NCBI GenBank assembly: GCA_039683575.1
Contig: JBDKRC010000022.1
Span: forward strand, 1-37,688
Direction of reading: 5' to 3'
From: Armatimonadia bacterium
GTDB taxonomy: Bacteria; Armatimonadota; Zipacnadia; Zipacnadales; UBA11051
Length of the DNA: 37,688 nt
Below the pieces are notes generated by a model that saw only the letters and a list, made by a program, of their open reading frames with translations, had not been told where the DNA came from and did no database searches. Shown piece by piece: positions 105 through 27,634 of the stretch; within the stretch, counting starts at the first letter, position 1; the number at the start of each line of letters is the position of its first letter. The position numbers and the translations under genes were made by a program.

Positions 105-992
105 CTAGCGGACGGCCGCTCGCAGCAGCGCCAGGCAGCCCAGCCCGTAGTAGGTGTACTCGACGTCAGGCTCGTGGTCTGCCGGCGAGGCCTTGAAGCC
201 CCCGTCGGGAGCCGCGGCCGCCCGGACGAAGCGGGCAAGGTTGCCGAGGTTCAGACGGTCCAGCCCGTCGAGACCAGCCAAGGTCAGCAGCGCCGTGAAG
301 CTGCTTAGCAGGTCCCCCTCCGTCGCCCACGGGTGGGCCAGGAAGCCCCCATCCGCTGCCTGCATCTTCACCAGAAAGCCCTCGGCATGTCGGGCTTGTC
401 GCTCGGTCAGCACCTCCGCCGACAGCAGGAACGCCACTGCTGCCGCCGTGGCGCTGGTCTGCTCGCCCCCCTCGCCCTGCTGCTCGCGGAAGCCCCCGTT
501 CGGCTGCTGCAGTGCAGCAATGGCCTGAGCGGCCTCCAACCGCCGTGGCATGGTCTCGTCCAGCATCTCGTAGACCAACCCCGCCAGAAAGGTCGTGTAG
601 GCGCTGCAGACGTGGCTTCCGGGACGGGCGAAGGCGCCGCTGTCCAGCGCTTGACACTGGAGGGCCTCTTGGATCGCCTGGCGCGCGGGCGTCGGCTCAT
701 CGAGCAAGCGACGGCAGTTCAGCAGCGAAAAGGCCTCCAGGACCTCATGCACGGGCACTTGATCGAGGTAGGCCACTGTGGCCTTCGGCAGCCGATCCTG
801 TCCCCCGAGCAGCGTCACCGTGCGCAGCGCAAAGTCCGTGTAATACAGGTCCGACGTGCCCTGCCGGCCCCGGAAGCCGCCGTCGGGCTGCTGCTGGGCC
901 AGCACAAAAGCAAGCTGGGCCTCGGCGAAATCCTCACCGAGGCCCTGCAGACCGTCTTTCAACAGCGCGTCCACTATTTCGAGGTAGCGCAT
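105..992 (-). CDS. Prenyltransferase/squalene oxidase repeat protein (single alpha/alpha barrel, GGTase-beta-like)
   Basis: Repeated QxxDGGF motifs (QQPDGGF, QQPNGGF, QAADGGF, APDGGF), SDLYYTDFA and DVEYTYYGLG; starts 2 nt after the upstream stop. Confidence 0.85.
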   Translation of the reverse strand: MRYLEIVDALLKDGLQGLGEDFAEAQLAFVLAQQQPDGGFRGRQGTSDLYYTDFALRTVTLLGGQDRLPKATVAYLDQVPVHEVLEAFSLLNCRRLLDEPTPARQAIQEALQCQALDSGAFARPGSHVCSAYTTFLAGLVYEMLDETMPRRLEAAQAIAALQQPNGGFREQQGEGGEQTSATAAAVAFLLSAEVLTERQARHAEGFLVKMQAADGGFLAHPWATEGDLLSSFTALLTLAGLDGLDRLNLGNLARFVRAAAAPDGGFKASPADHEPDVEYTYYGLGCLALLRAAVR

Positions 993-994
993 CG

Positions 995-2725
995 CTATCG
1001 CTTCCGCAGCACATTACGCGCCAGGAACCTCAGTAGCTCCTGCAGCGCCGGTTCGCCGAGTTGGCCTGCCATGTCCAGGGCCCTCTCGCGCAATCGCGCG
1101 TACAGCACCTCGGCCCGCTCCATCGCGCCCAGTGAGACATATAGCTCCCTGACGCGCTCCACGACCACCGCAGGCTCTTCCTGCAGCCGCGCCTCGCGCG
1201 TCAGCGCCGCGAGTTGCTGAGCCCCGCCCGCCTCCAGCGCAAACGCCCGCAGTATGGTCGGCCGCCCCGCGATGATGTCGCGGCCCAGGGCGAGTTTGTT
1301 GTTGCTCTCCTCTTCCCAGTCCTCCAGATCGTTGTAGACCTGGTAGCCCTCGCCGATGTACACCGCGAACTGGCGCAGTGTCTCGTGCGGAAGGTCAACC
1401 TCGGCCGCCCGCAGCCCTGCGTAGAGGGCCACTTCAAAGGCTGGCGCGGTCTTCAGCGCCCCGATCTGCAGCGCATGCACGGGCCGGAGGTCGTCAGCTT
1501 GATGCTGGTTCCACAGGAGTTCGGTGCCCTGTCCGCAGCATAGCTGCAGGTGAGCCGCCGAAAGACGGTTGAGGATGTCCGCGACAGCCTGCGCGCCCAG
1601 TTCCGGCCCCTGCGTGGCGATCAGGCGGTAACCGAGCCCGACCAGATAATCACCAACGTTGATTGCAGCTTCGATGCCGTGCCGCTGGTGGATCGTGGGT
1701 TGCCCGTAGCGGAAGGAGTCCTTGTCCTCGATATCGTCATGCACCAGCGACGCCTTGTGGAGGGCCTCGATAGCCACCGCGAGTCGCCGCACGGGCAGCG
1801 GCAGCAGGTCTTCCACCTGCGCCTGAGCCGACAGGGCCTCGGCACCATGCTTGCCAACCGCGTAGGCCGCAAGGGTGATGAAGGGCCTGAAGCGCTTCCC
1901 CCCGAGCCGCAGCCACTGGCGCGCAATGGCATCGGTCGCTCCCATCGCGCCTGCAGCTTCCCCGGTGTGCGAGGCATCTCCCGAAGCCGACCGGCACGAG
2001 GACTGCTCCACTATCCGGTCGAACTCGTCGGTCTCGAAAAGCTGCCGCGTGAAGCGAAGCAGCGGCAGGTAGCTGCGATGCACCCGTTCCCCGGCCACGC
2101 CGGTGAGTTCCAGGACCTCGTGGATCAGATCCACTTCCGCCGTCGTATCAACACAGCCGTCAGTCAGCAGCGGAATGGCCTGATGGGGAATGCCGAGATC
2201 GGCGATGCGCTCGAAAGACTTCTCGAGAGATTCGAGGCAGGCCACGCCGAGAATGGCGTCGGCCTCGCCCTCAAGGACTTTCACAACCACTGAAGAGGTG
2301 CCTTCTGCCACTACGACACTGTACCCCAGCGCCTCTGCGTGCTCTTTCAGGCCCTGAATCTCGCACGCGCCACAGCCGACACAGTTGAGCCCAATAGTGT
2401 CGAAGGTGCCAGGACAGTGGCCGTGCTTGCTCAGGCACTTGGGCAGTAGGAGCAGGCGGCGGTTTTGCGGCGTCGCCTGATATTCACCACGCCAGAAAGC
2501 GTTGTCCACCGCGACCATCGCGAAGCCGAGGTACTCCTGCGGCAGTTCGAGACGCCGCAATACCTCGCGCCCCGCCTCCTCCAGAGCCTCGCGGCCAGGC
2601 GGCGTCTGGTGGCTCAGGGCCGCCCCCAGAGCCGCCGCTTCCCGGCGCACAGCCAGCCGGACCTCGCAGACCTGCGGGACCTGCCTGATGTCCGGTTCGG
2701 AGTTGACGGCGTCAGCTACGGTCAT
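995..2725 (-). CDS. DUF116 domain fused to trans-polyprenyl diphosphate synthase
   Basis: N-terminal LLLLPKCL, CVGCGAC and GVACL (DUF116-like); C-terminal GGKRFRP, first Asp-rich motif LVHDDIED..RYG, GQ, KT and second motif YQVYNDLED. Confidence 0.85.
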   Translation of the reverse strand: MTVADAVNSEPDIRQVPQVCEVRLAVRREAAALGAALSHQTPPGREALEEAGREVLRRLELPQEYLGFAMVAVDNAFWRGEYQATPQNRRLLLLPKCLSKHGHCPGTFDTIGLNCVGCGACEIQGLKEHAEALGYSVVVAEGTSSVVVKVLEGEADAILGVACLESLEKSFERIADLGIPHQAIPLLTDGCVDTTAEVDLIHEVLELTGVAGERVHRSYLPLLRFTRQLFETDEFDRIVEQSSCRSASGDASHTGEAAGAMGATDAIARQWLRLGGKRFRPFITLAAYAVGKHGAEALSAQAQVEDLLPLPVRRLAVAIEALHKASLVHDDIEDKDSFRYGQPTIHQRHGIEAAINVGDYLVGLGYRLIATQGPELGAQAVADILNRLSAAHLQLCCGQGTELLWNQHQADDLRPVHALQIGALKTAPAFEVALYAGLRAAEVDLPHETLRQFAVYIGEGYQVYNDLEDWEEESNNKLALGRDIIAGRPTILRAFALEAGGAQQLAALTREARLQEEPAVVVERVRELYVSLGAMERAEVLYARLRERALDMAGQLGEPALQELLRFLARNVLRKR

Positions 2726-2762
2726 TCAGGAGTTACCATTGGGTTTGTTGCGCGACACTCCC

Positions 2763-2861
2763 TGGAGGGGCCGAATGCGCAGTCTCATCGTGCATCCGGC
2801 CCGCCGTTGCGTACGGTGGGCCGGATGCCGCCGATACGGCTGTCGGCATTCGGCCCCTCCA
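2763..2861. repeat. REP-like palindromic doublet, family D (GGAG type), copy 1
   Basis: Outer 16-bp inverted repeat tggaggggccgaatgc/gcattcggcccctcca plus an inner gcatccggccc/gggccggatgc repeat; homologous to 26269-26357. Confidence 0.85.
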
Positions 2862-2867
2862 TTTACG

Positions 2868-4226
2868 CTACTGCGTCCCCAGACACCACATCTTCGTCAG
2901 CCCACGAACATATACCCGATTACCTTCAAAGACCGGACAGGAGCGGAAAGGTTCCAGCTTGAGCCGCTTGACCTCTTCATACTGCCGGCCCGGCTTGACG
3001 ACGATGGTGACGCCCTTGTCATTGCTGACATAGAGCAGACCACCGGCGAAGGTAATGGCGGGGTAGAAGGTCGGCTTTTCGTTCAGCGCCTGCTCGTAGA
3101 TCACCTGTCCGTTAGCGGCGTCTACGGCGCTGAGAATCCCCACCTGCGTCACGCAGTAGATGATGCCCTCGTGCAGCACGGAGGCAGCATAGTAGCGGTC
3201 CTTGCGCACCTGGGTCTCCCACAGTGGCGTGAGGGGATCAGCGGCGGTCGCCGGCAGTTTCCACGCTTTGCCGCCGTTCTGGATGAAATAGACGTTGCCA
3301 TCGGCCAGGATGGGATCACCATACTCAAGGCGCGTGAGCTTCTGGGCGAGTACTTTGCCGTCGCTGGCCCGTACGAGGTCACCAGCCGGGGTGACGATGA
3401 TCTCGGTGTCACCGATCTTGCCAACCTGCGGCGTGCCCCAGCTCTCGGCCAGGCGCGTCTTCCAGATCGTGTTACCTGTCATTGGGTCAAGAGCCATCAA
3501 GTTCAGAATATGGATGATGAGTTTGCCGTCGGCCAGCACGGGCGAGCAACTGTGCCCCCACTCGATGACAGGCTTCTCGAAGTACTTGCGCCACACGAGC
3601 TTGCCTTCAAGATCATAGCAGGCGGCGATGCCGTGGTTGAACAGCACCCAGACGTGCTTGCCATCGCTGACCGGGGTCGGGGTTGAGAAGCCGTTGATCT
3701 GGTACGTTTTGGGCAGTACATACCACTTCTCAAGACCGGCAATCTGCTCGTTGAGAGTCTTCACTTCGCCCTTGAGGCCCTCGATCTTGGCCTTCAGTTC
3801 GGCGTCGTCGGGCTTGTCCTTGAGTTCAGTCTGCAGCTTGTAGATCTGCCCCTGCTTCTGGCCCGCCTGCTTGCGCAAGTCGGCAACCTGGGTGTTGGTG
3901 GCATCAATCTGCGCCGCTTCCTCGGGCGTCGCCACGTCCTTGTAGCCGTTGGCGGACTGCCAGAGCACGCTGCCGTCGGTCTTGGACAGACACATCAGCG
4001 TGTCCGGTTCGGTGCAGATGAAGATGCGGTCGCCAACGATAACGGGCGTGGCGTTGCTCCAGGAGGGAAGGGGGACCGACCAGATGACATTGCTGTCAGG
4101 GGCCCAGTCAGCGGGCGGGGTGGCTGTGGGGTATTTTCCGGTGCCGTCGGTGCGCCAGCCAACGGGGGCGGCGGTGAGACCTGAAACCAGCAGCAGCAAA
4201 GCCAGACAAGCCACGGCTACACGCAT
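2868..4226 (-). CDS. Secreted PQQ-like/BamB-type beta-propeller protein with a coiled-coil insertion
   Basis: Signal peptide; WRTDGTG, NVIWSVPLP..SNATPV, STPTPVSDG and SPVLADG propeller motifs; AAAGGAG ribosome-binding site. Confidence 0.85.
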   Translation of the reverse strand: MRVAVACLALLLLVSGLTAAPVGWRTDGTGKYPTATPPADWAPDSNVIWSVPLPSWSNATPVIVGDRIFICTEPDTLMCLSKTDGSVLWQSANGYKDVATPEEAAQIDATNTQVADLRKQAGQKQGQIYKLQTELKDKPDDAELKAKIEGLKGEVKTLNEQIAGLEKWYVLPKTYQINGFSTPTPVSDGKHVWVLFNHGIAACYDLEGKLVWRKYFEKPVIEWGHSCSPVLADGKLIIHILNLMALDPMTGNTIWKTRLAESWGTPQVGKIGDTEIIVTPAGDLVRASDGKVLAQKLTRLEYGDPILADGNVYFIQNGGKAWKLPATAADPLTPLWETQVRKDRYYAASVLHEGIIYCVTQVGILSAVDAANGQVIYEQALNEKPTFYPAITFAGGLLYVSNDKGVTIVVKPGRQYEEVKRLKLEPFRSCPVFEGNRVYVRGLTKMWCLGTQ

Positions 4227-4241: not shown

Positions 4242-6095
4242 CTACCTTACTGTTTTAGCAAATAGTAGATTACTCGCTCGCCCCAGCGCCTCGACCGTCC
4301 AGACCACCGGATAGAGCACTTCACTATACCATAAACTGGCGAAGTAGAGACCAATGGGAGTGGGGCGAGTCCACGTCCCGTCTTCCACATTCCGCAATAG
4401 ACACTCGAGCCCCTGCAGCAGTGCCTCCGAGGATTCGCCCATCGCTGCCAGAGCCGCCAGTGCCAGAGCGGTTTCCTCGGCGGAAGTGTCCACTCCTGCT
4501 GCCCCGCCCCAGCCGCCGTCCGGGTTCTGCGCAGAGAGAAGATACTGCAGGCCGCGCTGGGTCATTTCGCTCTGAGGCTCAAGCTCGGCGAGCGCGAGCA
4601 GGACCCGAGCGGTGCCAAAGACCGGGTTGAGATGGCCCTCGGTGTACTGGTTGCCAAACCACAGCGGCACCCAGGAGCCGTCGGGGCGCTGGCGGCGGCG
4701 GAGGTAGGCCAGGCCTCGGATAGCGCTTCCGCTGTAGGGCGGGGGCTCGTACCCCGCCGTCTGGTCGTTCGGGCACGGCTGCGGCGGGGACTCCGCCGCT
4801 TGGTTGGTCGGTGATAACGGCTGCGGCGGGGCCGCCGCCGCTTGGTTGGTCGGTGGTAACGGCTGCGGCGGGGTACGAGCCCCCGCCCTACAGTGAGAAA
4901 GGGCCCGCAGCGCGTGGGCCGTGATGTCGTCGCAACTGGCGTCAAACGGCAGCTTGCCCCACCCACGGCAGAAGGTCGGCCATCCGCCGTCGCTGTTCTG
5001 CAGGTCTACCAGCCACTTTCGGCCTGATTGCAGTGCCTTCTCATCCAGATACCCCGCTAAGGCCAAGAGCGCGCCGGAGGTGTCGTCTGCATCAGGGACC
5101 GCGCCGGGAAGATGGCTCCAGCCCCACCCGCCGGGCGAGGCGCCGGTGAAGGGATGAACCTGCGTGTACTGCCGCTCTGCCAGCCACGCGAGGGTTCGAG
5201 CCGCCTCCGGCTCGGGAAGCCCTCCAGAGTGCGCCAGTGCATTGAAGGCGCTTGAGGTCACCCATACGGAGAGGTTGGTGTCAATCGGCCAACTGCCGTC
5301 AGCGCGCATGGACTGACGGAGAAACTGGAGGCCCTGTTTGAGCGAATGCTGATCGCCATGGCCGACAGAGAGCAATGCCATGCACACAAAGGCGGTCAGT
5401 GGGGTCGCTTCGAGGTAGCCACCCGATTGTGGCTGCAAAGCAATCAGCTTGCGGAGAGCCGCACGGGTAACCACTCGCCGAAGAGGCGAGGCGAACGCAT
5501 GGCCGATCGGACGGTGATACTCGATGGCGATGCCGATGGCGATGAGAGCGGGGAGGGCGTAGCTGACGACCTGCAGCGGGGTGTGTCGGAGGAGACTCTG
5601 GGGTACGACCGACCACTCATAGGGCAGCGGTGGCACGGCATGCCAGTCCACCAGGCCCGCCAGCGCGCAGTTCATGAGGATGGGGACAGCAAAGGTCCTG
5701 TCTGCGCCGTAGAGCCGGGTGATGGCCTGCACGCGCGCCTGGGGTGTGTCGGCGCCGTGGTCTTTGAGGTAGGCTTGGGATGCTTCGTCTGGCGTCTGTC
5801 CCGCCAGGATCAGCGCGGAACACACCAACAGCGTCGTCGCGAGGTTGCTCGGACTATCCGTCGTGTCACCCCAGCCGCCATCCTCGTTCTGCGTCTGGAT
5901 GAGCCACTCCACGCCCGCCTCGATTAGCGGACGGTCCTGTTCGAGCTTAGCGAGGCACAGGGCGCTTACCGCCGTGGCCGTTGAGAGCGCCGAGGAAGAC
6001 AGGTAGCCCTCCCAGTAGGTGCCGTCCACTCGTTGCGCCAGCAGATGCTGGCGCGTGGTCTCAAGCGCCTGCTGCAGCCGCTCGGCGTTGATCAC
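4242..6095 (-). CDS. Squalene-hopene cyclase-like class II terpene cyclase carrying an in-frame palindromic insertion
   Basis: WEGYLSSSALSTA; QW repeats (QNEDGGW, QNSDGGW, QRPDGSW, QNPDGGW); catalytic-type PDADDT at 5082-5093; GTG start overlaps the upstream TGA (GTGA). Confidence 0.88.
   Translation of the reverse strand: MINAERLQQALETTRQHLLAQRVDGTYWEGYLSSSALSTATAVSALCLAKLEQDRPLIEAGVEWLIQTQNEDGGWGDTTDSPSNLATTLLVCSALILAGQTPDEASQAYLKDHGADTPQARVQAITRLYGADRTFAVPILMNCALAGLVDWHAVPPLPYEWSVVPQSLLRHTPLQVVSYALPALIAIGIAIEYHRPIGHAFASPLRRVVTRAALRKLIALQPQSGGYLEATPLTAFVCMALLSVGHGDQHSLKQGLQFLRQSMRADGSWPIDTNLSVWVTSSAFNALAHSGGLPEPEAARTLAWLAERQYTQVHPFTGASPGGWGWSHLPGAVPDADDTSGALLALAGYLDEKALQSGRKWLVDLQNSDGGWPTFCRGWGKLPFDASCDDITAHALRALSHCRAGARTPPQPLPPTNQAAAAPPQPLSPTNQAAESPPQPCPNDQTAGYEPPPYSGSAIRGLAYLRRRQRPDGSWVPLWFGNQYTEGHLNPVFGTARVLLALAELEPQSEMTQRGLQYLLSAQNPDGGWGGAAGVDTSAEETALALAALAAMGESSEALLQGLECLLRNVEDGTWTRPTPIGLYFASLWYSEVLYPVVWTVEALGRASNLLFAKTVR
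4732..4893. repeat. REP-like doublet, family A (GTAG type), inside the cyclase CDS
   Basis: Perfect 28-bp inverted repeats at 4732-4759 and 4866-4893 (ctgtagggcgggggctcgtaccccgccg); internal 42-bp tandem repeat; total length 162 bp = 54 codons. Confidence 0.93.
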
Positions 6096-7591
6096 GGCGC
6101 CGCAGCCTTCCTGGCGCGGAGCAGCCGCCGCCACATCACGACGTTGCCCTTGCCAAGCGCCTGGATGAGCATCCGTCGTGCCGCGCTCACTCCAGCAGCC
6201 TTCTGGCCGTCAGCATACAGCCGTGGCACCCAGCGGAAGTTGAACTCGTAGGCCTCCTGCATGAGTTGCCAGTGCAGCCGGGTGAGGTTCGGCAGTGGCT
6301 CGCCTTGCACGGGAGCATAGATGACCGGGAAGATGGTCACCGGGCGGCCCTGCAGCGCTCGTACCCAGTCGAGCGTCTGCTGGATATCCTGCGGGGTCTC
6401 GCCGGGCAGCCCGACAACCAGTGACGCCATGGGGACGAAGCCGAGGCGCATCAGGCGCTCCAACTGCTCGCGGCAGAAGCCGCCCCAGTCTTCAGGCGCG
6501 GTGCGGCCCATCTTCGGCCTTCCGCCATTGGCCTGCAGAAGCTGGCCGGAGGCGGTCTCGATGCCGATATTGAACCAGGGGTAGCTGAGCGGAGTGCGGC
6601 CCGCGCCGCCAGCCAGCAGGCGACGCACCTCTGCAAGCTCGTCGTCGCTATACGCGGCGATGCTGATCACATTCACGTGATCTGCCTGCACGAGGCGCAA
6701 GCGCGGTAGGGCGGCGATGCGGCTCAGGAGCGCGATGAGTTCGGCGGGGCGGCAATTCAGGCCCTGCCCGCCGTAGCGCAGCAGGTCCTCACTGAGGATG
6801 GCGATGCTGGTCTGGCCGGCGCAGATATTGGTCTGGATGTCGGAGAGTATCCTGTCGGGCGGCAGATGCTGCATGGGGACGTTGCCGATAGTGCAAAACT
6901 CGCAGCCCAGCCCGCAACCGCGGCTGATTTCGACCACGCCCATGGTGCTGGCCCCGCGCAGCAGGGGGATGCGGTCTGCCGTAACCGGTTGGCCGTCGAT
7001 CACTGCGGGAAGCTCGCGCCCCTCGGCGAGGTCGCGCACGATCTGGGCTACGTTGCCCTCCGCATAGCCGAGCACAACATGGTCCACGCCCAGTTCCCGG
7101 CGCTTGGCGGGGTCATTGGCGAGTTGCCACGCCCCCGGCCCCCCGAGGAGTACCTTAGCCTGCGGGGCGCGCTCACTCACGATGCGCCGCACCTGCTGCA
7201 GGAGCTTGCGGAACATCGCCTGAGGGTAGATCTCGCCCCCAGCGACGCCGGTCATGGTGGAACTGCTCATTCCGAGGCCCACGGGCTCGCCGGAACTAAC
7301 CGCCACGACGCGGGTCTCGGGGCCAATGGCGTCGGCGAGATGGGCATCGTCCACCGTCACAAGCTGCTCAGGTGCAAGGCCGCCCTCCAGCAGCGCCGAT
7401 TCGACGCGACGCAGGCCAAGCGGGGCCACTGGCGCCTGTCCGTTGAAGTGTCTGGCGCGGGGGAGCAGCAACCGTTCGATGAGGGGAGCGGGAGACGAGG
7501 TGGTCTGGCTGGAGGCGAGCATACCGTCGAGCAGCACGGTGTACTGCGCCATGAGAGTCCGATCGGCGGTAAGGACTATGCGGTAGGCCAA
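6092..7591 (-). CDS. Radical SAM protein with an N-terminal B12-binding-like domain (COG1032 type), resembling the Grs/Gms family
   Basis: EISRGCGLGCEFC (CX3CX2C, 6893-6916), GGPGAWQL and IGIETAS; N-terminus IVLTADRTLM..APLGLRRVESAL. TTG start at 7591 was chosen because it follows the ferredoxin stop; the ORF track extends to 7630. Confidence 0.85.
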   Translation of the reverse strand: MAYRIVLTADRTLMAQYTVLLDGMLASSQTTSSPAPLIERLLLPRARHFNGQAPVAPLGLRRVESALLEGGLAPEQLVTVDDAHLADAIGPETRVVAVSSGEPVGLGMSSSTMTGVAGGEIYPQAMFRKLLQQVRRIVSERAPQAKVLLGGPGAWQLANDPAKRRELGVDHVVLGYAEGNVAQIVRDLAEGRELPAVIDGQPVTADRIPLLRGASTMGVVEISRGCGLGCEFCTIGNVPMQHLPPDRILSDIQTNICAGQTSIAILSEDLLRYGGQGLNCRPAELIALLSRIAALPRLRLVQADHVNVISIAAYSDDELAEVRRLLAGGAGRTPLSYPWFNIGIETASGQLLQANGGRPKMGRTAPEDWGGFCREQLERLMRLGFVPMASLVVGLPGETPQDIQQTLDWVRALQGRPVTIFPVIYAPVQGEPLPNLTRLHWQLMQEAYEFNFRWVPRLYADGQKAAGVSAARRMLIQALGKGNVVMWRRLLRARKAAAP

Positions 7592-7592
7592 T

Positions 7593-8372
7593 TCAGTTGC
7601 CCCCGCCGGTGATCTGGTCGAGACGGTCAATCAAGTCGTCAATCTCCTTCAGCATCGGCGAATCAGACGGTCTTGGGAGCTGGCGGCCACACTCGGGGCA
7701 GGTACCGTCGGGCATGACCTGCGACAGCTCGGCAGAAGGCTTCTGGCAGACGGTGCAGACCTTGCCGGTCCGCGTGTAGAACATCCGCCGCGCCTCGGCA
7801 TCGCGCTCCACTTTGCGCCCCGGCGCCCCGGCAATGGCCGGGTCCTGAGCGTACAGCGGGAACATGATCGCGCCCTGCGGGCAGACCCGCGAGCAGGCGG
7901 GGCAGCCGGCCTTGCAGCTGTCGGGATTGGTCACGCACACCTGCCCCCCCGCGTCTTGTTCGTAGACGCCGAAGAGGCAGAACTGGAGGCAATGGTGGCA
8001 GTTGGTGCACTCGGCGCGGTCAACGACTGGGTACCATCGCTCACGAGCAGGCTGCTCGACCTCAGGCCTCCGGGATTCGGGAGCCTCGGCGGCGGGCTCG
8101 ATTGTGTGGAATTCCCAACCCTCGGTACGAACGGCGTGCCGCCGCAGTAGCCACTCCGTCGCCCGTGGATACAGCGGGCCGTAGACCGTGGCAGGGCCAT
8201 CGAGGTTGCGCAGCGCCTCCCACACGGGATGATCGTCGTCCAGGTGGTAGAGGTCAGGCAGCACCATCGTCTCGCGCCCGGCGGCAGCTTCAGCAGCGGC
8301 CAAGGCCTGCGCCGCCGCGTCATATTGCGGGTCCCGGGGATGCTTGATAATCACGATTGTGAGCGGGCTCAT
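7593..8372 (-). CDS. 2x[4Fe-4S] ferredoxin-family protein with a C-terminal CxxC..CxxC
   Basis: WYPVVD..CTNCHHCLQFC and CKAGCPACSRVCP; CTVC..CPEC tail; ATG at 8372 preferred over the extension that reads through a repeat. Confidence 0.82.
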   Translation of the reverse strand: MSPLTIVIIKHPRDPQYDAAAQALAAAEAAAGRETMVLPDLYHLDDDHPVWEALRNLDGPATVYGPLYPRATEWLLRRHAVRTEGWEFHTIEPAAEAPESRRPEVEQPARERWYPVVDRAECTNCHHCLQFCLFGVYEQDAGGQVCVTNPDSCKAGCPACSRVCPQGAIMFPLYAQDPAIAGAPGRKVERDAEARRMFYTRTGKVCTVCQKPSAELSQVMPDGTCPECGRQLPRPSDSPMLKEIDDLIDRLDQITGGGN

Positions 8373-8405
8373 GTGCTTCGGAACTGCTTTCGGGTAGGTA
8401 ATGTT

Positions 8406-8411: not shown

Positions 8412-8448
8412 TATGTACAGGGCGGTCTGCGCCAGATGGCATTCTCGC

Positions 8449-21024: not shown

Positions 21025-21734
21025 CAGCATTGCTGACTCTCCAGAGCGTGACGCGGAGGTTCGACCTCCCCTCGGGGGCGGCGCTGACGGTGCTGGAGGA
21101 GGTCAGCGTGAGCTTCGAGGCGGGGGCTACAGCGGCGATCATCGGGCCCTCGGGCTCGGGCAAGAGCACCTTGCTGAACCTCATCGGCGCGCTTGACCAG
21201 CCCACGTCGGGGCGGATACTGCTGCGTGACATTGAGGTCACGGCACTGCGGGGCGCCGACCTCGCGGCCTATCGCGCGGCCCATGTTGGCTTTGTGTTTC
21301 AGGAGCACCACCTGCTGCCCCAGTTGTCCGCGGTCGAAAACGTACTGCTGCCGACGATGGCGGTTGGCGCTGAGGCCGAGGCGGCGGAGCGGGCGGAAGG
21401 GCTGCTCCAACAGGTGGGACTATCCGACCGCCTCGACGCCTTTCCGGCGCAGCTATCCGGTGGCGAACGCCAGCGCGTGGCGCTGGCGCGGGCGCTGGTG
21501 AATGCTCCGGAACTGCTGCTGTGCGACGAGCCGACTGGGAACCTCGACCACGACACCGGTGCGGAGGTCGTCTCGCTGCTGCTGGACCTTGCGGCACAGC
21601 AGGGCGTCACGGTGCTGATGGTGACCCATAACCTCGAACAGGCGCAGCGGTTTGGGCAGAGGTGGGAACTGCGTGAGGGCAAGCTCATCTCGTTGCCCGC
21701 CCAGGGCGGACAAGGTGGCGGTGAACCTAAGTGA
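21021..21734 (+). CDS. ABC transporter ATP-binding protein, LolD/MacB family
   Basis: GPSGSGKST, GFVFQ, LSGGERQRVA, LLLCDEPTGNLD and VTHN; GTGA overlap at the start. Confidence 0.93.
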   Translation: MTALLTLQSVTRRFDLPSGAALTVLEEVSVSFEAGATAAIIGPSGSGKSTLLNLIGALDQPTSGRILLRDIEVTALRGADLAAYRAAHVGFVFQEHHLLPQLSAVENVLLPTMAVGAEAEAAERAEGLLQQVGLSDRLDAFPAQLSGGERQRVALARALVNAPELLLCDEPTGNLDHDTGAEVVSLLLDLAAQQGVTVLMVTHNLEQAQRFGQRWELREGKLISLPAQGGQGGGEPK

Positions 21735-24700
21735 CGCTTCGTGGGGTGGCCTGGCGCGGGCTGAGGCACTATTGGCAGACCTCGCTGCTGGTGATCGTGG
21801 GTCTCGCGATCGCCGGCGCAGTCGTGACGGGCTCGCTCGTCGTCGGCGACTCGATGCGGGGCAGCCTGCGCGACACGGCGCTGGAGCGGCTGGGCAAGGT
21901 TGACTATGCTCTCGCGCCGCCGCGGGCGCTGGCGGTGGAGGGGCTCCTAGGGAAGCTGCGCAATAACCCGCGCGTGCGGCAGGTCGTGGGCGTAACCAAA
22001 CTCACTGGCAGCGCCACCAACACCACCAGTGAGGCCGCTGCCCCGGACGTTACGATCTGGCTCATCCCCGACGACTTCTGGAAGCTTATCCCCGCAGTAG
22101 ATTCGGCGGCAGTCGCCGGAAATGGTACAGGTGCGGTAGTCAACGCCGCGTTGGCTCGCGATTTGGGGCTTTCTCAAGGCGACGAGGTTCTTCTCACAGC
22201 CGCTCGACCCGCTGAGGCGGGCTCAGGGTCTCTTTTCACTCGACGGGGCCTGCAGGAGGCCGTGTCGTTCCAGCGTTGGCCGGTGACGGCCGTGCTGGGC
22301 GACCATGCTGGCGACTTCCGCATGGAAGCCCAGACCGCGCAGCCCCGCAATATCTTCATCCCCCTTTCCTCCCTGACTTCCGACGGCCCAGCCCCCGAGA
22401 ACACGATCAACACTCTCCTCGTTGAGAGCTACGGCAGCCCGCACGCCGGGGTAGAACTGCAGCAGGCGCTCGGACACGCCGTATCGCTCGACGACTACGG
22501 TCTGTCTGTCCAACGCGCCCGGGGAAGCGGGCGGTTGGTGGTTTTCAGCCAGGATGTGACCTTTTCGGAGGCACAGGTAAAGGCCGTCCGCGAGGCAGCG
22601 CAGCAGGCTGGCGCGACGGCAGCCGCCGCCTCGATCTATGTCGCCACTACGGTGCGCAATCAGTCATCCGGGCGCGTTGCGGCGTATGTGCTGCTGCTGG
22701 GCATGGAGGGCGTGCAGAAGCCACAGCTTCAGGAGTGGGCGGCGCAGGACCTGCAGGCGAAGGTCGGGCAGGCGCTGGGCATCGAATACCCGCTGCCGCA
22801 GCCAGATGGCACACTGCAGACGAAGCGCGCGAGCGTGACGATCGACAGCATTGCGGGCCTGCAGGGGCCGCTGGCGGATGACGCGCTCGTGCCGCGTATC
22901 GCGGGAGTGACCGACTCGCTGGAACTGCGCGATTGGAAGCCGCCCTTCCCCGTGGATATGAGCCGGATCACGCAACGTGACGAGGACTGGTGGCACAAAT
23001 ACCGGGCGACGCCGAAGATTCTGCTGCCCATTGACGCGCTGCGGAGCATGTGGCAGAGCGGTCCCGGCGGCACAGGGGCTGAATTCGTCACCTCGATTGA
23101 AGTGCGCTGCCCGGTGGGACGTGAAACGGCCGTGGCGGCGGCGCTGAAGCGGCTGATACCGTCACGCCTCGACCCCGTGCAGGAGGGCCTCGCATTCAGG
23201 CCGGTGCGCGAGCAGGCGCTGGCGGCGGCGCAGGGCACTTCGGACTTCGCCTCGCTGTTTCTGGGCCTGAGCATGTTCCTGGTCATGTCCGGCGCGGGCC
23301 TGTCGGGAATGCTGCTGCGGCTCGGGCTGGAGCGGCGGTCGTCGCAGCTTGGGCTGATGCTGGCTCTTGGCCTCGATGCACGGCAGGTGCGGAGGGTGCT
23401 CATGAGCGAGGGGGCGGTGTTGACGGTCGCCGGGTCGGTGCTGGGCGTGCCCGCGGGAATTGGATATGCCGGGCTGATGTTGTGGTTGCTCAATCACCAG
23501 TGGCAGGGCGCTCTGGGTGCGATGCCCCGGCTGTGGCTGCACGTGACGCCCCTGAGCGTGCTGGTGGGGCTGCTGGGCGCGGCGGTGGTGGGGATCGTCG
23601 CGGCGGCCTGGGGGCTGAAGGGGATGCTGCGGGCGACGCCGCTGGCGCTGCTTCGCGGGCAGAGCGCGGGCAGGCCCGGCTTCCCCAGCGAGACGGTGCG
23701 CAAGGCATCTGATGAGCGCTCGAAGATGGGACCGGGGCTGCCGCTGCCATCAGCAGCCACCGCGCCGTGGGTGCTGGTGGTTGTGTCGCTTCTAGTGGCT
23801 GTCCTGGTACCGGCCGCGTTGCTTTTGGGCCCAACCGCCTTCTTCTTTGCCGCCGGGGTCGCGCTGCTCGTCGGAGGGCTTCTGGGGGGCAAGCGCGTCC
23901 TGAGCCGCGCGCTACGCAGGCGATGGCGGGGCCGGAGCCTTGGGGCGCTGGCGCTGCGCAACATGGCCGCACACCCGCGTCGGAGCCTGCTGGTAGGGGG
24001 CTTGCTCGCCGGCGCGACGTTTGTCATTGTGGCGGTGGCGGCAAATGCGCGGGACGTACTGCGGGCCGATCCACAGCATAACCCCGCGACGGGCGGGTTC
24101 AGCCTCCGCGCCGTCTCAGCCGCGCCGCTGGCCTACGACCTCTCGACCCCTGCGGGCCGCGAGAACCTCGGCTTCAGCGCCGAGGACGAAGCAATCATGT
24201 CCCGGTGCGTGGTGATGCCCTTCTTCGTCAGCCCCGGCGAGGATGTGAGTTGCCTGAACCTCTCGCGCCCGCAGTCTCCGCGGCTGCTGGGCGTGACCGA
24301 CGCCATGCTCAAGCGCGACGGCTTTCGGCTCAGCGGGTCAAGGGCCTGGATTGCGCTCGCAGGCTCCTCATCGCCCATCGTGCCCGCCTTCGGCGACGCC
24401 GACACGGTCCGCTGGACGCTGCATTCGGGGCCGGGCAAGGTCTATGACACACATGACGCGCATGGGCGACCGCTGCGACTGAAGTTTGTCGGCCTGATTC
24501 ATGGCGGCTTGTTCGCCCGGGAGCTTCTGATCCACGAGACCGCCTTCAGGCGGCTTTACCCGTCCGTGAGCGGCTATTCATACTTCCTGATCCAGACCCC
24601 TGCCGGGCAGGAGCAGGCCGTGGCGGAGGTCCTGCGGCGCAATCTCGGGGACTACGGGCTGCAGGTCCGCACGACTGCGGAGGCCATCGCCGAGGTGATG

Positions 24701-25093
24701 AGCGTTCAGAACACTTACCTGTCCATCTTCCTTGCTCTGGGCGGACTCGGGCTGCTGCTGGGTACAGTGGGGTTGGTCGCCGTGATCGTGCGGGGCGCGC
24801 TTGAGCGGCGACAGGAGCTGGCGCTGCTGCTGGCGACGGGCTTTGATGAGCTGCGCGTGGCGCGGCTGCTGATGATGGAACATGCCGGCCTGCTGGTGGC
24901 TGGAGTGGCGCTGGGGACGGCCGCGGCGCTGCTGGCGGTGGCGCCCCAACTCGTGTCGGCGCAGGCCAATGTGAACTGGACGGCGCTTCTGACCGTCCTC
25001 GCGGGAGTGTTGGTAACCGGGCTAATGAGCTGCGTTTTCGGCGTAAGAATGAGTTTGCGAGGGCCGCTGTTGGCGGCGTTGCGGAGTGAGTAG
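21731..25093 (+). CDS. Large FtsX/MacB-type (type VII) ABC permease with two permease repeats
   Basis: TGSLVVGDSMRGSLR..RLG; two ERR.QL/EL.L..A.G motifs each followed by TM helices; large extracytoplasmic loops; ALRSE C-terminus. Confidence 0.88.
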   Translation: MTLRGVAWRGLRHYWQTSLLVIVGLAIAGAVVTGSLVVGDSMRGSLRDTALERLGKVDYALAPPRALAVEGLLGKLRNNPRVRQVVGVTKLTGSATNTTSEAAAPDVTIWLIPDDFWKLIPAVDSAAVAGNGTGAVVNAALARDLGLSQGDEVLLTAARPAEAGSGSLFTRRGLQEAVSFQRWPVTAVLGDHAGDFRMEAQTAQPRNIFIPLSSLTSDGPAPENTINTLLVESYGSPHAGVELQQALGHAVSLDDYGLSVQRARGSGRLVVFSQDVTFSEAQVKAVREAAQQAGATAAAASIYVATTVRNQSSGRVAAYVLLLGMEGVQKPQLQEWAAQDLQAKVGQALGIEYPLPQPDGTLQTKRASVTIDSIAGLQGPLADDALVPRIAGVTDSLELRDWKPPFPVDMSRITQRDEDWWHKYRATPKILLPIDALRSMWQSGPGGTGAEFVTSIEVRCPVGRETAVAAALKRLIPSRLDPVQEGLAFRPVREQALAAAQGTSDFASLFLGLSMFLVMSGAGLSGMLLRLGLERRSSQLGLMLALGLDARQVRRVLMSEGAVLTVAGSVLGVPAGIGYAGLMLWLLNHQWQGALGAMPRLWLHVTPLSVLVGLLGAAVVGIVAAAWGLKGMLRATPLALLRGQSAGRPGFPSETVRKASDERSKMGPGLPLPSAATAPWVLVVVSLLVAVLVPAALLLGPTAFFFAAGVALLVGGLLGGKRVLSRALRRRWRGRSLGALALRNMAAHPRRSLLVGGLLAGATFVIVAVAANARDVLRADPQHNPATGGFSLRAVSAAPLAYDLSTPAGRENLGFSAEDEAIMSRCVVMPFFVSPGEDVSCLNLSRPQSPRLLGVTDAMLKRDGFRLSGSRAWIALAGSSSPIVPAFGDADTVRWTLHSGPGKVYDTHDAHGRPLRLKFVGLIHGGLFARELLIHETAFRRLYPSVSGYSYFLIQTPAGQEQAVAEVLRRNLGDYGLQVRTTAEAIAEVMSVQNTYLSIFLALGGLGLLLGTVGLVAVIVRGALERRQELALLLATGFDELRVARLLMMEHAGLLVAGVALGTAAALLAVAPQLVSAQANVNWTALLTVLAGVLVTGLMSCVFGVRMSLRGPLLAALRSE

Positions 25094-26266
25094 ATGATCC
25101 GTAGGGATAGCCATAACCGCGTAGTGCGGGCGTCTCGCCCGTTGTGTTGGCTGGGAGACCGCAGATGGTCTCGGCTCGGCCCCTGTCTTCTGGCACTGCT
25201 GTTTGTGGCAGGCCTTGGCTGGGCGGCTGACCGCAACTGGCCATCGTTTCGCGGCAATCAGTCGCTGACCGGCTCCACCGGTGCCGCCTTCACGGATAAG
25301 CCGCGGTTGCGTTGGACCTACCGGGCCGGCGCCTCCATCGAGGCCAACGCTGCCATTGCCGGCGACACGGTCTATCTCGCGACGCGGGGCAAAACCGTCC
25401 TGGCGCTGAATCTGGCCAACGGGAAGTTGAAGTGGCGGTTTGGTGGTGGGGACTACTTCACAGCCTCGCCCTGTGTGGTCGGCGAGACCGTCTATGTGGG
25501 CGATGAGAACGGCACCTTCTGGGCGCTCAACGCTGCGACCGGACGGCCACGGTGGAAATACCGCACCAGCGATAAGATCATTTCGTCGGCGACGCCCGCG
25601 CCTGGTGCTGTGCTCTTTGGCTCGTATGACAACTATCTCTACAAGCTCAACGCCCAGACCGGCAAGAAGATCTGGAGCTTCAAGTCCGGCGCCCAGGTGC
25701 ATACCACCCCCTGCGTGTTCGGCAACAGCGTCGCCATCGCCGGGTGTGACGGTTATGTGCGCGTGATCAGCCTGCAGACCGGCAAGCAGACCGCCGCCGC
25801 GCATTTTGACACCAACTTCGGCGCCTCGCCCGCGCAGGACCGGGGCCTGCTCTTCGTCGGCAGCATGAGTGGCGACTATGCCGCCGTGCGGACCTCCGGC
25901 GCGGTCCTGTGGCAGACAGTGGTGGGGAAGAGCAGCGGCGGGGCCAGCTTCGGCTCTCCCGCAGCCTCCGGCAGCTACGTGGTCTTCCCGTCACGCAACA
26001 ACAGCGTGTTCTGCCTCGACCGCGCCACCGGTGCCACGCGCTGGCGGTTCAACGTGAAGGGCGAGGCGGACTCGTCTCCTGCCATCGCGGGCAACCGCGT
26101 GTTTTTCGGCGCGGACGATGGCAACTTCTACGGAGTGACCCTGGACGGGGGCAGACTCGTCTGGCGGTTTAGGGCGGGGCCTCGAGTGGCGGCCGGGCCG
26201 GCCATCGGGCAGGGCAAGATGGTCATCAGCGCCAGCGACGGCACGGTATACTGTTTCGGCCGCTAG
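25094..26266 (+). CDS. Secreted PQQ-like/BamB-type beta-propeller protein
   Basis: WPSFRGN..TG and regular propeller repeats (ASPCVVG, FGSYDNYLY, DSSPAIAG); exact start uncertain. Confidence 0.87.
   Translation: MIRRDSHNRVVRASRPLCWLGDRRWSRLGPCLLALLFVAGLGWAADRNWPSFRGNQSLTGSTGAAFTDKPRLRWTYRAGASIEANAAIAGDTVYLATRGKTVLALNLANGKLKWRFGGGDYFTASPCVVGETVYVGDENGTFWALNAATGRPRWKYRTSDKIISSATPAPGAVLFGSYDNYLYKLNAQTGKKIWSFKSGAQVHTTPCVFGNSVAIAGCDGYVRVISLQTGKQTAAAHFDTNFGASPAQDRGLLFVGSMSGDYAAVRTSGAVLWQTVVGKSSGGASFGSPAASGSYVVFPSRNNSVFCLDRATGATRWRFNVKGEADSSPAIAGNRVFFGADDGNFYGVTLDGGRLVWRFRAGPRVAAGPAIGQGKMVISASDGTVYCFGR
25115..25141 (+). repeat. Single family C REP-like arm
   Basis: aaccgcgtagtgcgggcgtctcgcccg is the exact reverse complement of 10288-10314. 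Confidence 0.85.
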
Positions 26267-26268
26267 GC

Positions 26269-26357
26269 GGAGGGGCCGAATGTCCGCAGCCATACCGCGG
26301 ACATCCGGCCCATGTGTGGCGCGACGGTGGGCCGGATGCTGCGCATTCGGCCCCTCC
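26269..26357. repeat. REP-like doublet, family D, copy 2
   Basis: ggaggggccgaatg/cattcggcccctcc outer and catccggccca/tgggccggatg inner inverted repeats; homologous to 2763-2861. Confidence 0.85.
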
Positions 26358-26431
26358 ATGGCATTCTGGGGCAACTTTTCTCCCGTCTCGTTTGTCAAAC
26401 GTCAACAATATCCTGAATGAGGTTACCGATT

Positions 26432-27634
26432 ATGCTGCGAGTCGCGAAAGTGATGCTGGTTGTGGCTTGTTTTTGCTGCACCATGGCGGTGGCGGCTGAT
26501 TGGCCGAACTTCCTCGGCCCGACCCGCAATGGCCTTGCCCCAGACACCGGGATCAACAAGAACTGGGCGGCCAAGCCGCCGCAGGAACTGTGGCGCGTGC
26601 CGATGCATGACGACGGATTCGCTGGGCCGTGCGTGGCCGACGGCAAGGTCTTCATCATTGATCACGAGGGGGCGCAGGACATCGTGAGAGCCTTCGGCTT
26701 TGGCGATGGCAAGCAGGTGTGGGAGTTTGCGTACCCGGATACTGATAAGCCGAACTACGGCTTTGGACGTTCGACCCCCGTATTCTCCGACGGCAAGCTT
26801 TACGTCGCAGGGCGGCTCGGGCAGTTGCTGTGCCTCGAGGCCGCAACCGGCAAGCCGGTGTGGGGTAAGAACCTCATGCGCGACTTCCAGGGCCAGAAGC
26901 CTCAGTGGGACTACTCCGGTTCGCCCCTGATCGACGGGGACAGACTGATCATCTGCTGCGGTGGTCCGGCCAGTGTCGCGTGCCTGGACAAGAACACGGG
27001 CAACCCCATCTGGACCGGTGGCAATCAGGACGCGGCAGGATATACCTCGCCGATCCCGGCCACAATCCTGGGTCAGAAGCAGTATGTGGTAACGACTGGG
27101 TCGTACGTGATCGGCGTGGACGCGGCCACCGGCAAGCTTGCGTGGGCAGTTCCATGGGAGAACAAGTGCAAGGTCAACGCCTCCCAGCCGATGGTTGAGG
27201 GCGACTATGTCTTCATCACCAGCGGCTACGGAATCGGCTGCGCGCTGTACCAGATCACAGCTAACGGTCCGGTGGAACGTTGGCGCAGCCGCGACATCTC
27301 GGCCCATTTCAGTTCGCCGATCTATTACGGCGGCTATCTCTACAGCAACAGCGATCCGGGCAACCTCGTCTGCATGAGCCCGGCCACTGGTGAGGTGGCC
27401 TGGAAACAAGGTGGGTTCGAGAAGGGTGGCCTCGTCATTGTGGACGGCGTGATCATCGCCCTGACGGGCAGGGATGGCGATCTGGTGATGGCGACGGCGC
27501 AGGCGACGGGCTATCAGGAACTGGGGCGCCTCAAGGCGCCGCTCGGAGGGCAGAGCTGGACCGCACCCATCGTTGCTGACGGCAAGCTACTCATCCGCAA
27601 CAAGTCCGCGCTGGCGTGTCTTGACCTGAAGTAG
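26432..27634 (+). CDS. Secreted PQQ-like/BamB-type beta-propeller protein
   Basis: Signal peptide ending AVA-ADWPNFLGPTRNG; RSTPV, YSGSPLI, AGYTSP and SWTAPIVADGKLLIRN; GAGGT before ATG 26432. Confidence 0.88.
   Translation: MLRVAKVMLVVACFCCTMAVAADWPNFLGPTRNGLAPDTGINKNWAAKPPQELWRVPMHDDGFAGPCVADGKVFIIDHEGAQDIVRAFGFGDGKQVWEFAYPDTDKPNYGFGRSTPVFSDGKLYVAGRLGQLLCLEAATGKPVWGKNLMRDFQGQKPQWDYSGSPLIDGDRLIICCGGPASVACLDKNTGNPIWTGGNQDAAGYTSPIPATILGQKQYVVTTGSYVIGVDAATGKLAWAVPWENKCKVNASQPMVEGDYVFITSGYGIGCALYQITANGPVERWRSRDISAHFSSPIYYGGYLYSNSDPGNLVCMSPATGEVAWKQGGFEKGGLVIVDGVIIALTGRDGDLVMATAQATGYQELGRLKAPLGGQSWTAPIVADGKLLIRNKSALACLDLK

Follow-up and report, generated by a model that had tools for sequence, protein, structure and literature searches.

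What kind of product would call for a terpene cyclase, a polyprenyl synthase and a radical S-adenosylmethionine (SAM) enzyme to be encoded back to back with a series of iron-sulfur (Fe-S) proteins, an ATP-binding cassette (ABC) transporter and six propeller proteins? This question is raised by positions 105-27634 of contig JBDKRC010000022.1 of an Armatimonadia bacterium (assembly GCA_039683575.1). The window that we analysed is this one entire contig of 37,688 nt, part of a metagenome-assembled genome (MAG) of 6.2 Mb that is 96% complete. We consider it an even chance that the locus makes a cyclic polyprenoid lipid that does not derive from squalene, as an add-on to an autonomous redox and extraction machine of the cell envelope, with three separable modules cooperating. 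The evidence comes from the gene content, its conservation, the linkage of the modules in relatives, the catalytic motifs and the absence of a squalene synthase from most carriers.

A divergent two-arm locus

Using Pfam, NCBIfam and the translations, we observed 18 densely packed genes (g01 to g18) in two divergent arms. The features of the locus are as follows.

105-992, minus strand: g01, Prenyltrans toroid (PF00432, 79.3 bits against a cut-off of 26.5)
995-2725, minus strand: g02, DUF116 (PF01976, 111.5 bits) joined to a polyprenyl synthase (polyprenyl_synt, PF00348, 135.1 bits against a cut-off of 27)
2868-4226, minus strand: g03, secreted PQQ_2 propeller, BamB-like (PF13360, 78.4 bits)
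4242-6134, minus strand: g04, squalene-hopene cyclase (SHC)-like cyclase (PF13243, 142.7 bits; PF13249, 85.1 bits), probable start GTG 6095
6092-7630, minus strand: g05, radical SAM enzyme (PF04055, 34.5 bits)
7593-8372, minus strand: g06, cytoplasmic 2x[4Fe-4S] ferredoxin-like protein with weak Fer4 matches, probable start ATG 8372
8373-8621, no strand: divergent intergenic region with a sigma-70-like site and a palindromic repeat
8622-10229, plus strand: g07, membrane-anchored PQQ_2 propeller (PF13360, 95.6 bits)
10335-11312, plus strand: g08, membrane-anchored NHL propeller (PF01436 match)
11503-12150, plus strand: g09, four-cluster ferredoxin exported by twin-arginine translocation (Tat), NapG-like, probable start 11566
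12150-13457, plus strand: g10, polytopic NapH/MauN-like Fe-S protein (Fer4_5, PF12801, 48.1 bits), likeliest start 12150
13481-15541, plus strand: g11, three transmembrane (TM) segments, a collagen-like Gly-Pro stalk and a PQQ_2 propeller (Pfam, hydropathy)
15564-16901, plus strand: g12, oxidoreductase dependent on flavin adenine dinucleotide (FAD), FAD_oxidored (PF12831, 312 bits), likeliest start 15564
17036-19426, plus strand: g13, NuoE-NuoF-Fer4 fusion (PF01257, PF01512, PF10589; TIGR01959, 468.7 bits)
19426-21024, plus strand: g14, Fer2_4 and GltD-like, an NfnA/StnC-like Fe-S flavoprotein
20970-21734, plus strand: g15, LolD/MacB/YbbA-type ABC ATPase (PF00005, 125.8 bits), probable start GTG 21021
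21731-25093, plus strand: g16, duplicated FtsX permease of 1120 amino acids (aa) (PF02687 twice, PF12704 weak)
25094-26266, plus strand: g17, PQQ_2 propeller, secreted or anchored (Pfam)
26417-27634, plus strand: g18, secreted PQQ_2 propeller (Pfam), the final conserved gene of the right arm

Most gene boundaries overlap or abut. The junctions read from the sequence are TAATG at g13/g14, GTGA at g15/g16, g14/g15 and g05/g04, and TGATG at g09/g10; the ATG of g17 comes directly after the TAG of g16, and g02 and g01 are separated by 2 nt. In a hydropathy scan the left-arm enzymes were cytoplasmic, and all six propellers (five PQQ_2 and one NHL by Pfam) lay behind a signal or an anchor.

An earlier sequence-only reading of this DNA had described a divergent, tightly coupled two-arm gene set with these domains, and the Pfam and NCBIfam matches, translations and junction sequences bear this out. 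Its five PQQ-type propellers spread over both arms were likewise recovered as PQQ_2 matches, one on the left (g03) and four on the right (g07, g11, g17 and g18). It had also counted two Tat-like signals. The one in g09 is convincing; the second twin arginine lies in an N-terminal extension of the longest g06 open reading frame (ORF) that orthologues do not cover. The FAD_oxidored gene g12 had gone unmentioned.

The two arms stay together in relatives

Starting from the g02 orthologue of each relative, we retrieved the DNA around it (genomes carry the code G and flanking loci the code L, each with a number). Eleven Armatimonadia contigs were obtained, and ten were informative, as that of G017 ended too early. 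The arms were adjacent and divergent, in the order seen in the window, in nine of the ten (G001, G002, G006, G009, G013, G019, G024, G034 and G038). In other Armatimonadota families the same divergent layout was present in 4/6 contigs (the complete G181, and G182, G153 and G051), the contig of G140 being too short. The layout is not an assembly artefact, since G181 is a complete genome on a single contig.

Two further arrangements were seen outside the phylum. In the Planctomycetota MAG G046 the genes lie on one strand in the order g07-g08-g09-g10-g11-g13-g14-g03-g06-g05-g04-g02-g01-g15-g16-g17, so that the left cassette sits between g14 and g15, inside the right-arm operon. In the Brocadiaceae locus L045 the order is g06-g05-g04-g02-g01-g15-g16-g17-g07-g08-g09-g10. 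Inheritance by itself hardly accounts for three gene orders (divergent, embedded and tail-to-head) in which these parts remain together. The sequence-only reading had made its proposal depend on the two arms co-occurring in other genomes, and they do so in the nine contigs, in G181, G182, G153 and G051, and in G046 and L045. The right arm can itself be split up: G042 has g07-g13, the left core and g16 at places separated by hundreds of kb. Contigs of the RNA libraries X3 and X4 match pieces of both arms; these may come from DNA and were not used as evidence of expression.

Phylogenetic profiling, which the sequence-only reading had proposed as a check, gave the same picture. Among 41 close relatives, a full-length g02 orthologue was present in 21, g16 in 32 and g10 in 29. 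All 21 g02 carriers had g16 and 20 of them had g10; the 20 non-carriers had g16 in 11 cases and g10 in nine. We also evaluated an even sample of 151 Armatimonadota genomes (thresholds of 1e-60, 1e-40 and 1e-60 for g02, g10 and g16). Here g02 was found in 18, g10 in 24 and g16 in 34; as descriptive counts and not as a test, g10 occurred in 15/18 g02 carriers versus 9/133 non-carriers, and g16 in 17/18 versus 17/133. The pattern is nested: the left arm is nearly always accompanied by the right arm, and the right arm also occurs alone.

The synthase and the cyclase of the left arm

The signature gene of the left cassette is g02, in which DUF116 (approximately residues 56-204) is followed by a trans-isoprenyl diphosphate synthase (residues 267-510). 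The predicted structure had a predicted local distance difference test score (pLDDT) of 89.7, and its best Foldseek matches were polyprenyl and geranylgeranyl diphosphate (GGPP) synthases (TMt up to 0.85), to which the C-terminal half corresponds. For the DUF116 fold, the search with the whole of g02 gave prenyl synthases only. Seven cysteines of DUF116, those of CxxCxxC included, were invariant in 48/48 g02 sequences, as was the first Asp-rich motif, DDxxD (D330, D331 and D334). The second Asp-rich motif is NDxxD in 42/48 and DDxxD in 6/48, and reads NDLED in the window. A325 and S326, ahead of the first Asp-rich motif, are residues that we take to resemble those of long-chain synthases.

In the part of the paper of Makarova et al. 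accessible to us (PMC5898192), DUF116 is predicted, without experiment, to be a flavodoxin-like metal-binding electron-transfer domain, and the fusion of DUF116 with a polyprenyl synthetase is noted in Pirellula staleyi (Psta_0175). The NDxxD motif was compared with irregular coupling of the chrysanthemyl diphosphate synthase type (10.1101/169417, accessible portion). As a family hallmark of irregular coupling it is a weak lead only, DDxxD being retained in the six sequences mentioned.

The cyclase g04 belongs to class II (protonation-type) terpene cyclases and has the beta-gamma architecture, with both the N and the C domain of SQHop_cyclase. Its closest solved chain is the SHC of A. acidocaldarius (1gsz_A, E 1.3e-22), and the DADD of g04 aligned with the DVDD of that enzyme. 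The DxDD motif was present in 74/74 g04 orthologues, among which 155 columns were at least 93% conserved. Against the models TIGR01507 and TIGR01787 the protein scored 117.6 bits (cut-off 431.1) and 124 bits (cut-off 322.7). It is the only SHC-like gene of its genome above the Pfam cut-off.

We then asked where squalene could come from. No squalene/phytoene synthase (PF00494) was found in the 96%-complete genome itself; the control matched 8/14 reference genomes. The family was also missing from 11/18 g02 carriers, including the complete G181, and was present in 84/151 genomes overall. As 11 of the 18 carriers have no squalene/phytoene synthase, we conclude that this is not a hopanoid pathway. 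The best match to HpnH reached 50.8 bits against a cut-off of 225, which is a weak test, as no control genome exceeded the cut-off either. These results agree with the sequence-only reading, which had recognised no canonical hopanoid cluster here. With no squalene/phytoene synthase found in the genome or in most carriers, and with an intact DxDD motif, the substrate of g04 is most likely what g02 makes.

Radical SAM enzyme, ferredoxin, toroid and the left propeller

The radical SAM protein g05 scored 69.3 bits with TIGR04013, under its cut-off, and 17.5 bits with PF02310 (cut-off 32.1). Its predicted structure (pLDDT 93.8) has an N-terminal Rossmann-like domain and a class-B-like fold, resembling cobalamin-type radical SAM enzymes and MiaB/RimO alike: the best Foldseek matches were MgmA, MiaB, TsrM, AprD4, CysS, OxsB and TokK, and RimO fits equally. 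A comparison with the sequences of solved structures gave RimO-type matches only, with E near 1e-3. In 42 sequences the only invariant cysteines were C239, C243 and C246. Since these radical SAM cysteines are its sole invariant ones, g05 has no auxiliary cluster of the methylthiotransferase type. It is probably the tailoring enzyme of the left cassette, and from the predicted structure its likeliest job would be C-methylation or another radical C-C reaction. An identity as a tetraether-synthase-like enzyme (GDGT-MAS/Tes) was unsupported, no such chain being among the Foldseek matches listed.

In g06, eight cysteines were at least 93% conserved in 26 orthologues, which is sufficient for two clusters. 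Its N-terminal part is uncharacterised, and its ESM Atlas neighbours were 'hypothetical' Fer4 clusters only. The 295-aa g01 is a cytoplasmic alpha-alpha toroid, like the beta subunit of protein prenyltransferases and without a DxDD motif; its closest solved chains are RabGGTase-beta and FTase-beta. Thirty-six of its columns were at least 93% conserved in 35 orthologues, including R43, D48, R57, D272, D276 and E278. No alpha-subunit-like partner was found in the window by Pfam.

The left arm also encodes the propeller g03, which has an N-terminal hydrophobic signal and a coiled-coil insert. This gene is missing from the cassette of G009, and in G028, which has no left cassette, it adjoins the right arm.

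The left cassette beyond Armatimonadota

Relatives of the DUF116-synthase fusion were present in at least 588 species genomes, including Planctomycetota, Sumerlaeota, Pyrinomonadaceae and the isolate Anatilimnocola sp. NA78. The latter and Pirellula staleyi (Psta_0175, from the accessible part of PMC5898192) are cultured carriers of the minimal cassette. Outside the phylum we counted neighbours in the best 80 loci with 10-kb flanks. Among the loci with enough flank, the cyclase lay upstream of the synthase in 66/69, directly adjacent in 60 and with g03 between them in six. A g05 gene was present in 12/56 loci and a g06-like ferredoxin in 27/56, g01 was adjacent in 16/67, and g01 followed by g15/g16 was seen in 8/80 loci from other phyla. 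Redox genes appeared in 6/80, a figure limited by the 10-kb flanks. In Planctomycetota loci g01 stands directly before the ABC genes, and a g16-like permease with 35-39% identity was present in 5/5 large or complete Planctomycetota genomes with the minimal core.

The cassettes of Pirellulaceae carry HemN/HutW-like and SPASM-type radical SAM proteins and a flavoenzyme of the geranylgeranyl-reductase family (158.1 bits against a cut-off of 158.8) that replace the class-B-like g05 (L062:3244-4551, L062:6148-7443 and L054:12407-13663). They also carry a ferredoxin and a thioesterase, and then g01-g15-g16. The set that recurs comprises a cyclase, a synthase with an Fe-S domain, a radical SAM tailoring step and a ferredoxin, to which the ABC pair is often added.

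Two observations were made beside these loci. An ORF of about 180 aa without a Pfam or NCBIfam match directly follows the DUF116-synthase in Planctomycetota (L062:11962-12519, L054:11837-12382 and L103:11777-12316); it has no counterpart in the window. The cassette of Anatilimnocola sp. NA78 is followed, 1.7 kb downstream, by an ORF of 730 aa (L103:13393-15585) in which VipA-like and VipB-like domains (type VI sheath) are combined.

The right arm: a proposed redox relay and an ABC module

The right arm can be divided into a putative redox relay, R1 (g07-g14), and an ABC module, R2 (g15-g18). At the cytoplasmic end of R1, g13 has extra 2Fe-2S and 2x[4Fe-4S] domains and is 64-74% identical across relatives; judged by its domains, it would be the entry point for NADH with flavin mononucleotide (FMN). 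Residues 4-277 of g14 align to 6-283 of 9bov_A and residues 293-343 to 473-522. The approximately 190 residues between (chain positions 283-473), which are the NADPH-binding domain, have no counterpart in g14, and the molybdopterin-like domain is also missing. The accessory gene g12 is confined to the closest relatives; among the relatives' contigs it had a tblastn match in G002 only.

The polytopic g10 has six predicted hydrophobic segments, and its translation holds two CxxxCP and two CxxCxxCxxxCP motifs. With the NapH model TIGR02163 it scored 41.5 bits (cut-off 213), and no molybdopterin reductase of the kind that would be a NapA-type partner was found in the window by Pfam. The Tat signal of g09 reads TRRQFL; R37, R38 and 16 cysteines were at least 95% conserved in 20 orthologues, which is sufficient for four clusters.

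Of the propellers, g07 has one TM segment (44-62) and a Ser/Thr/Pro-rich stalk, and five cysteines and H333 were at least 95% conserved in 20 orthologues. In g08 the stretch F230-G232-C233-C234-N235-P236 was at least 95% conserved in 19 orthologues from several phyla, and the adjacent cysteine pair is a candidate for a redox-active vicinal disulfide that would form the terminus of the periplasmic relay. Orthologues of g11 were present in every right arm that we examined. In g17, C207, C218, C387 and H203 were conserved in 10 orthologues; it also gave the best score of the PQQ_2 proteins with the BamB model TIGR03300 (149.8 bits, cut-off 285.2). No match to PqqC was found in the genome, a result that is uninformative, as the control was also without a match anywhere. 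The topology from hydropathy is consistent with an electron path from cytoplasm to periplasm, and the components of R1 fit a putative NADH wire across the membrane to Cys-rich propellers.

In R2, the ATPase g15 scored 224.9 bits with the LolD model TIGR02211 (cut-off 307.75). The permease g16 has large periplasmic domains and approximately nine predicted hydrophobic segments, and no solved relative was found at E <= 0.001.

Proposed function and alternatives

In the reading that we favour, module L (g06-g01) would make a cyclic isoprenoid lipid of non-squalene origin in the cytoplasm. A polyprenyl diphosphate would be built by g02, with the Fe-S cluster or clusters of DUF116 regulating the reaction or feeding electrons to it, and g04 would protonate the open end of the chain via its DxDD acid and cyclise it. 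The product would then be tailored by radical chemistry by g05, reduced via g06, with C-methylation as the likeliest step, and g01, as a prenyl-binding toroid, would hand it on. The adjacency of g01-g15-g16 in several phyla ties the fate of the product to the ABC module. R2 would be a MacB/Lol-type ABC machine with periplasmic propellers, acting on the lipid on the periplasmic side of the inner membrane. In R1, electrons from NADH would pass via g13/g14, a putative Nfn/Stn descendant without the NADPH site, to the NapH-like g10 and the Tat ferredoxin g09, and would end at membrane-tethered propellers rich in invariant cysteines. R1 and R2 would be autonomous and L an add-on that depends on them; the Fe-S and radical SAM steps of L may draw on the R1 flavoprotein. 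What the product is, which way electrons flow and whether the lipid meets R1 or R2 at all are inferred from these data. The lipid may also be redox-modified by NAD(H)/ferredoxin electrons and delivered to the envelope, as the sequence-only reading proposed.

Several observations weigh against this reading. The arms are separated in G030, with 29.8 kb of unrelated DNA upstream of the left arm and the right arm on another contig, and in G024 g14-g18 lie approximately 450 kb from g07-g13. G067 has g02 and g01 with neither g04 nor the right arm nearby, and G070, G075 and G095 are g02 carriers without g10. The full g07-g18 series occurs without a left arm in G008, where the upstream genes encode a histidine kinase, PrpD, MttB and others, and G018 is a second genome with an intact right arm and no left one. 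The right arm must have a job of its own, since it is intact without the left arm in these two genomes. It is also commoner than the left arm, and the proposal of the sequence-only reading that it is dedicated to processing and export for this pathway does not hold. Most Planctomycetota loci consist of g04 and g02 only, and in 4/5 of the large or complete Planctomycetota genomes with this minimal core a g10 orthologue was absent. A PF00494 protein is present in 7/18 g02 carriers. MacB-type transporters are, to our knowledge, not known to take cytoplasmic substrates. Finally, the related genomes behind the phyletic counts are not independent.

The nested distribution could also mean that the lipid serves the machine, with the isoprenoid of L being needed by the NADH-to-periplasm relay as a membrane-ordering lipid or a lipid-soluble mediator or anchor, and being placed by the ABC module. 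Membrane quinols are the usual partners of NapH-type proteins. The synthase g02 carries a fused Fe-S domain, the cassette of G046 lies within the R operon, with R genes on either side, and in the Armatimonadia relatives L was always found with g16 (21/21) and only once without g10 (20/21), with R occurring alone; all of this would suit such a role. We nevertheless think it unlikely: in the 151-genome sample R is without L in 9/24 g10 carriers and 17/34 g16 carriers, Pfam revealed neither an aromatic prenyltransferase nor a ring-forming gene in the window, and a cyclised hydrocarbon has no obvious redox chemistry. A further explanation is that a stand-alone terpenoid cluster and a stand-alone R are merely neighbours, linked by common descent or joint horizontal transfer. 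The right arm stands alone in G008 and G018, the L core lacks R1 in four of the five Planctomycetota genomes, the parts are split in G030 and G024, and the sampled genomes are related, all of which speaks for this. Three gene orders hold the parts together across two phyla, however, R is present in 83-94% of carriers versus 7-13% of non-carriers, and the L operon contains the gene for g03, an R-type propeller, so that we give mere neighbourhood only a small share of the probability.

Two other readings concern the product itself. If g04 were a true squalene-hopene cyclase receiving squalene from elsewhere, the locus would be a divergent pathway to hopanoids or other squalene-derived triterpenoids. 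The A. acidocaldarius enzyme is indeed the closest solved chain, with an aligned DxDD, seven of the 18 carriers have a PF00494 protein, and the class-B-like g05 recalls the hopanoid methylases HpnP and HpnR. Against this stand the absence of PF00494 from the genome and from the other 11 carriers, the scores far under the cut-offs of TIGR01507 and TIGR01787, the lack of an HpnH over its cut-off and the pairing of cyclase with polyprenyl synthase in 66 of 69 loci, and we consider this pathway very unlikely. The left arm might instead modify a peptide or protein, g01 acting as a prenyltransferase on a protein or on the precursor of a ribosomally synthesised, post-translationally modified peptide (RiPP) matured by the radical SAM enzyme. 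The closest solved relatives of g01 are beta subunits of protein prenyltransferases, and radical SAM enzymes together with ABC exporters are typical of RiPP clusters. However, a precursor gene would not fit into the left arm, whose spacers measure 2-15 nt apart from the promoter region and a stem-loop of 140 nt; there is no alpha-subunit-like gene, and a DxDD cyclase conserved in all 74 orthologues would have no role there. This makes peptide or protein modification extremely improbable.

The favoured reading, a non-squalene cyclic lipid added on to an autonomous envelope machine, can be extended to a bolder one. Decades ago, lipids of the 'tricyclopolyprenol' type were put forward as the bacterial origin of the cheilanthanes, the tricyclic terpane biomarkers that occur in sediments and oils. 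It is conceivable, and in our view quite unlikely, that g02 and g04 convert a regular long polyprenyl diphosphate straight into polycyclic polyprenoids, with neither squalene nor oxygen involved, that the cassette is the genetic basis of the cheilanthane source, and that maturation or placement of the lipid is coupled to a new NADH-driven trans-membrane Fe-S relay. If this were true, a cassette spanning Planctomycetota, Armatimonadota, Sumerlaeota and Pyrinomonadaceae would be the sought-after genetic basis of these biomarkers. If the favoured reading holds, many environmental bacteria make a class of cyclic isoprenoid membrane lipids that are overlooked by standard hopanoid and sterol gene markers, and the assignment of lipid biomarkers to organisms would be affected. 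An Fe-S-dependent member would join the prenyl synthase family, and the link to the relay and the MacB-type extractor would provide an initial clue to what a widespread envelope machine does.

Repeats and neighbouring genes

The divergent region contains a promoter-like TTGACA-17-TAGTAT (8551-8579) before g07 and, at 8456-8523, a member of a second palindromic repeat family, which is shorter and has arms of approximately 22 bp. Identical arms are present on many other contigs. We rejected this palindrome as a shared operator between the arms, as it is a genome-wide repeat and is absent from the loci of relatives. The first family is a GC-rich palindromic repeat of approximately 90 bp with a predicted hairpin of -73 kcal/mol; it occupies 190 sites spread over 107 contigs of the genome. 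A genome repeat search placed its copies in the window as follows.

4728-4894, 20460-20663, 37343-37412 and 37594-37676, no strand: copies of the palindromic repeat of approximately 90 bp

The copies at 4728-4894 lie in frame within g04 and leave the ORF unbroken. They fall in a loop predicted to be on the surface, which has 61 residues here and mostly 15-25 in orthologues. Those at 20460-20663 are likewise in frame within g14, with the ORF unbroken, and are accompanied by a tandem duplication of approximately 37 residues that copies a Cys motif. Such in-frame palindromic repeats are reminiscent of Rickettsia palindromic elements. A long, near-perfect inverted repeat at 2730-2860 occupies the 140-nt spacer between g03 and g02, the sole sizeable gap of the left operon; it may be a further repeat element or an internal attenuator.

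Synteny with relatives stops after g18, and the glycosidase-like g19-g22 are outside the conserved set. This stretch (27718-37311), which is not conserved with the cluster, encodes a GH63/MGH1-like glycosidase, a 1529-aa secreted protein with PcRGLX-like domains, a 357-aa secreted protein without a family match and a 689-aa GLMA/GH42M-like protein.

Comparison with known systems

The sequence-only reading knew of no characterised system with this composition. In line with this, full-text searches of the literature gave no description of either arm or of their combination, subscription journals and supplements being outside its coverage. The accessible parts of PMC8692599 and 10.1101/2025.11.21.689855 are unrelated to this system.

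The hpn/SHC hopanoid cluster shares with the left arm a beta-gamma class II cyclase with an aligned DxDD, a radical SAM enzyme resembling the B12 type as the probable tailoring step, and the logic of making a membrane lipid. It differs in that the cyclase here is paired with an Fe-S-fused polyprenyl synthase and scores far under the SHC models, the squalene synthase family is missing (from the genome itself and 11 of the 18 carriers), no HpnH exceeds its cut-off, and no RND transporter of the HpnN type was found in the window. Another parallel is the C35 sesquarterpene pathway of Bacillus, which consists of heptaprenyl diphosphate synthase, YtpB and SqhC. There, what the SHC homologue cyclises is not squalene but a compound made from a regular polyprenyl diphosphate. 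Unlike in Bacillus, Pfam gave no YtpB-like class I enzyme in the window, the synthase bears the DUF116 Fe-S domain, and the partners are a radical SAM enzyme, a ferredoxin and a toroid.

For the ABC module, the likeness to MacB/LolCDE/YbbAP lies in the LolD/MacB-like ATPase, the FtsX domains and a weak MacB periplasmic core domain. In contrast to those systems, g16 is a single duplicated permease of 1120 aa without a solved relative, the ATPase falls under the LolD cut-off, and the cluster has no gene for an adaptor or an outer-membrane channel.

The relay resembles NapGH/NosGH/MauMN in pairing a Tat four-cluster ferredoxin (g09) with a polytopic Fer4_5/CxxxCP protein (g10). The score with the NapH model is 41.5 against 213, however, and there is no NapA, NosZ or MauB partner; the relay is instead accompanied by propellers of the PQQ_2 and NHL types and by an NADH flavoprotein. 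That flavoprotein is most like NfnABC/StnABC (PDB 9bov, 9n5u and 8oh5): g13 corresponds to fused NuoE-like and NuoF-like subunits, and g14 aligns with NfnA/StnC over the 2Fe-2S, 4Fe-4S and FAD parts (E 3.6e-76), without the NADPH-binding domain of approximately 190 residues and the molybdopterin-like domain. NfnABC/StnABC is a soluble enzyme, whereas g13 and g14 are encoded beside a membrane and periplasmic Fe-S relay.

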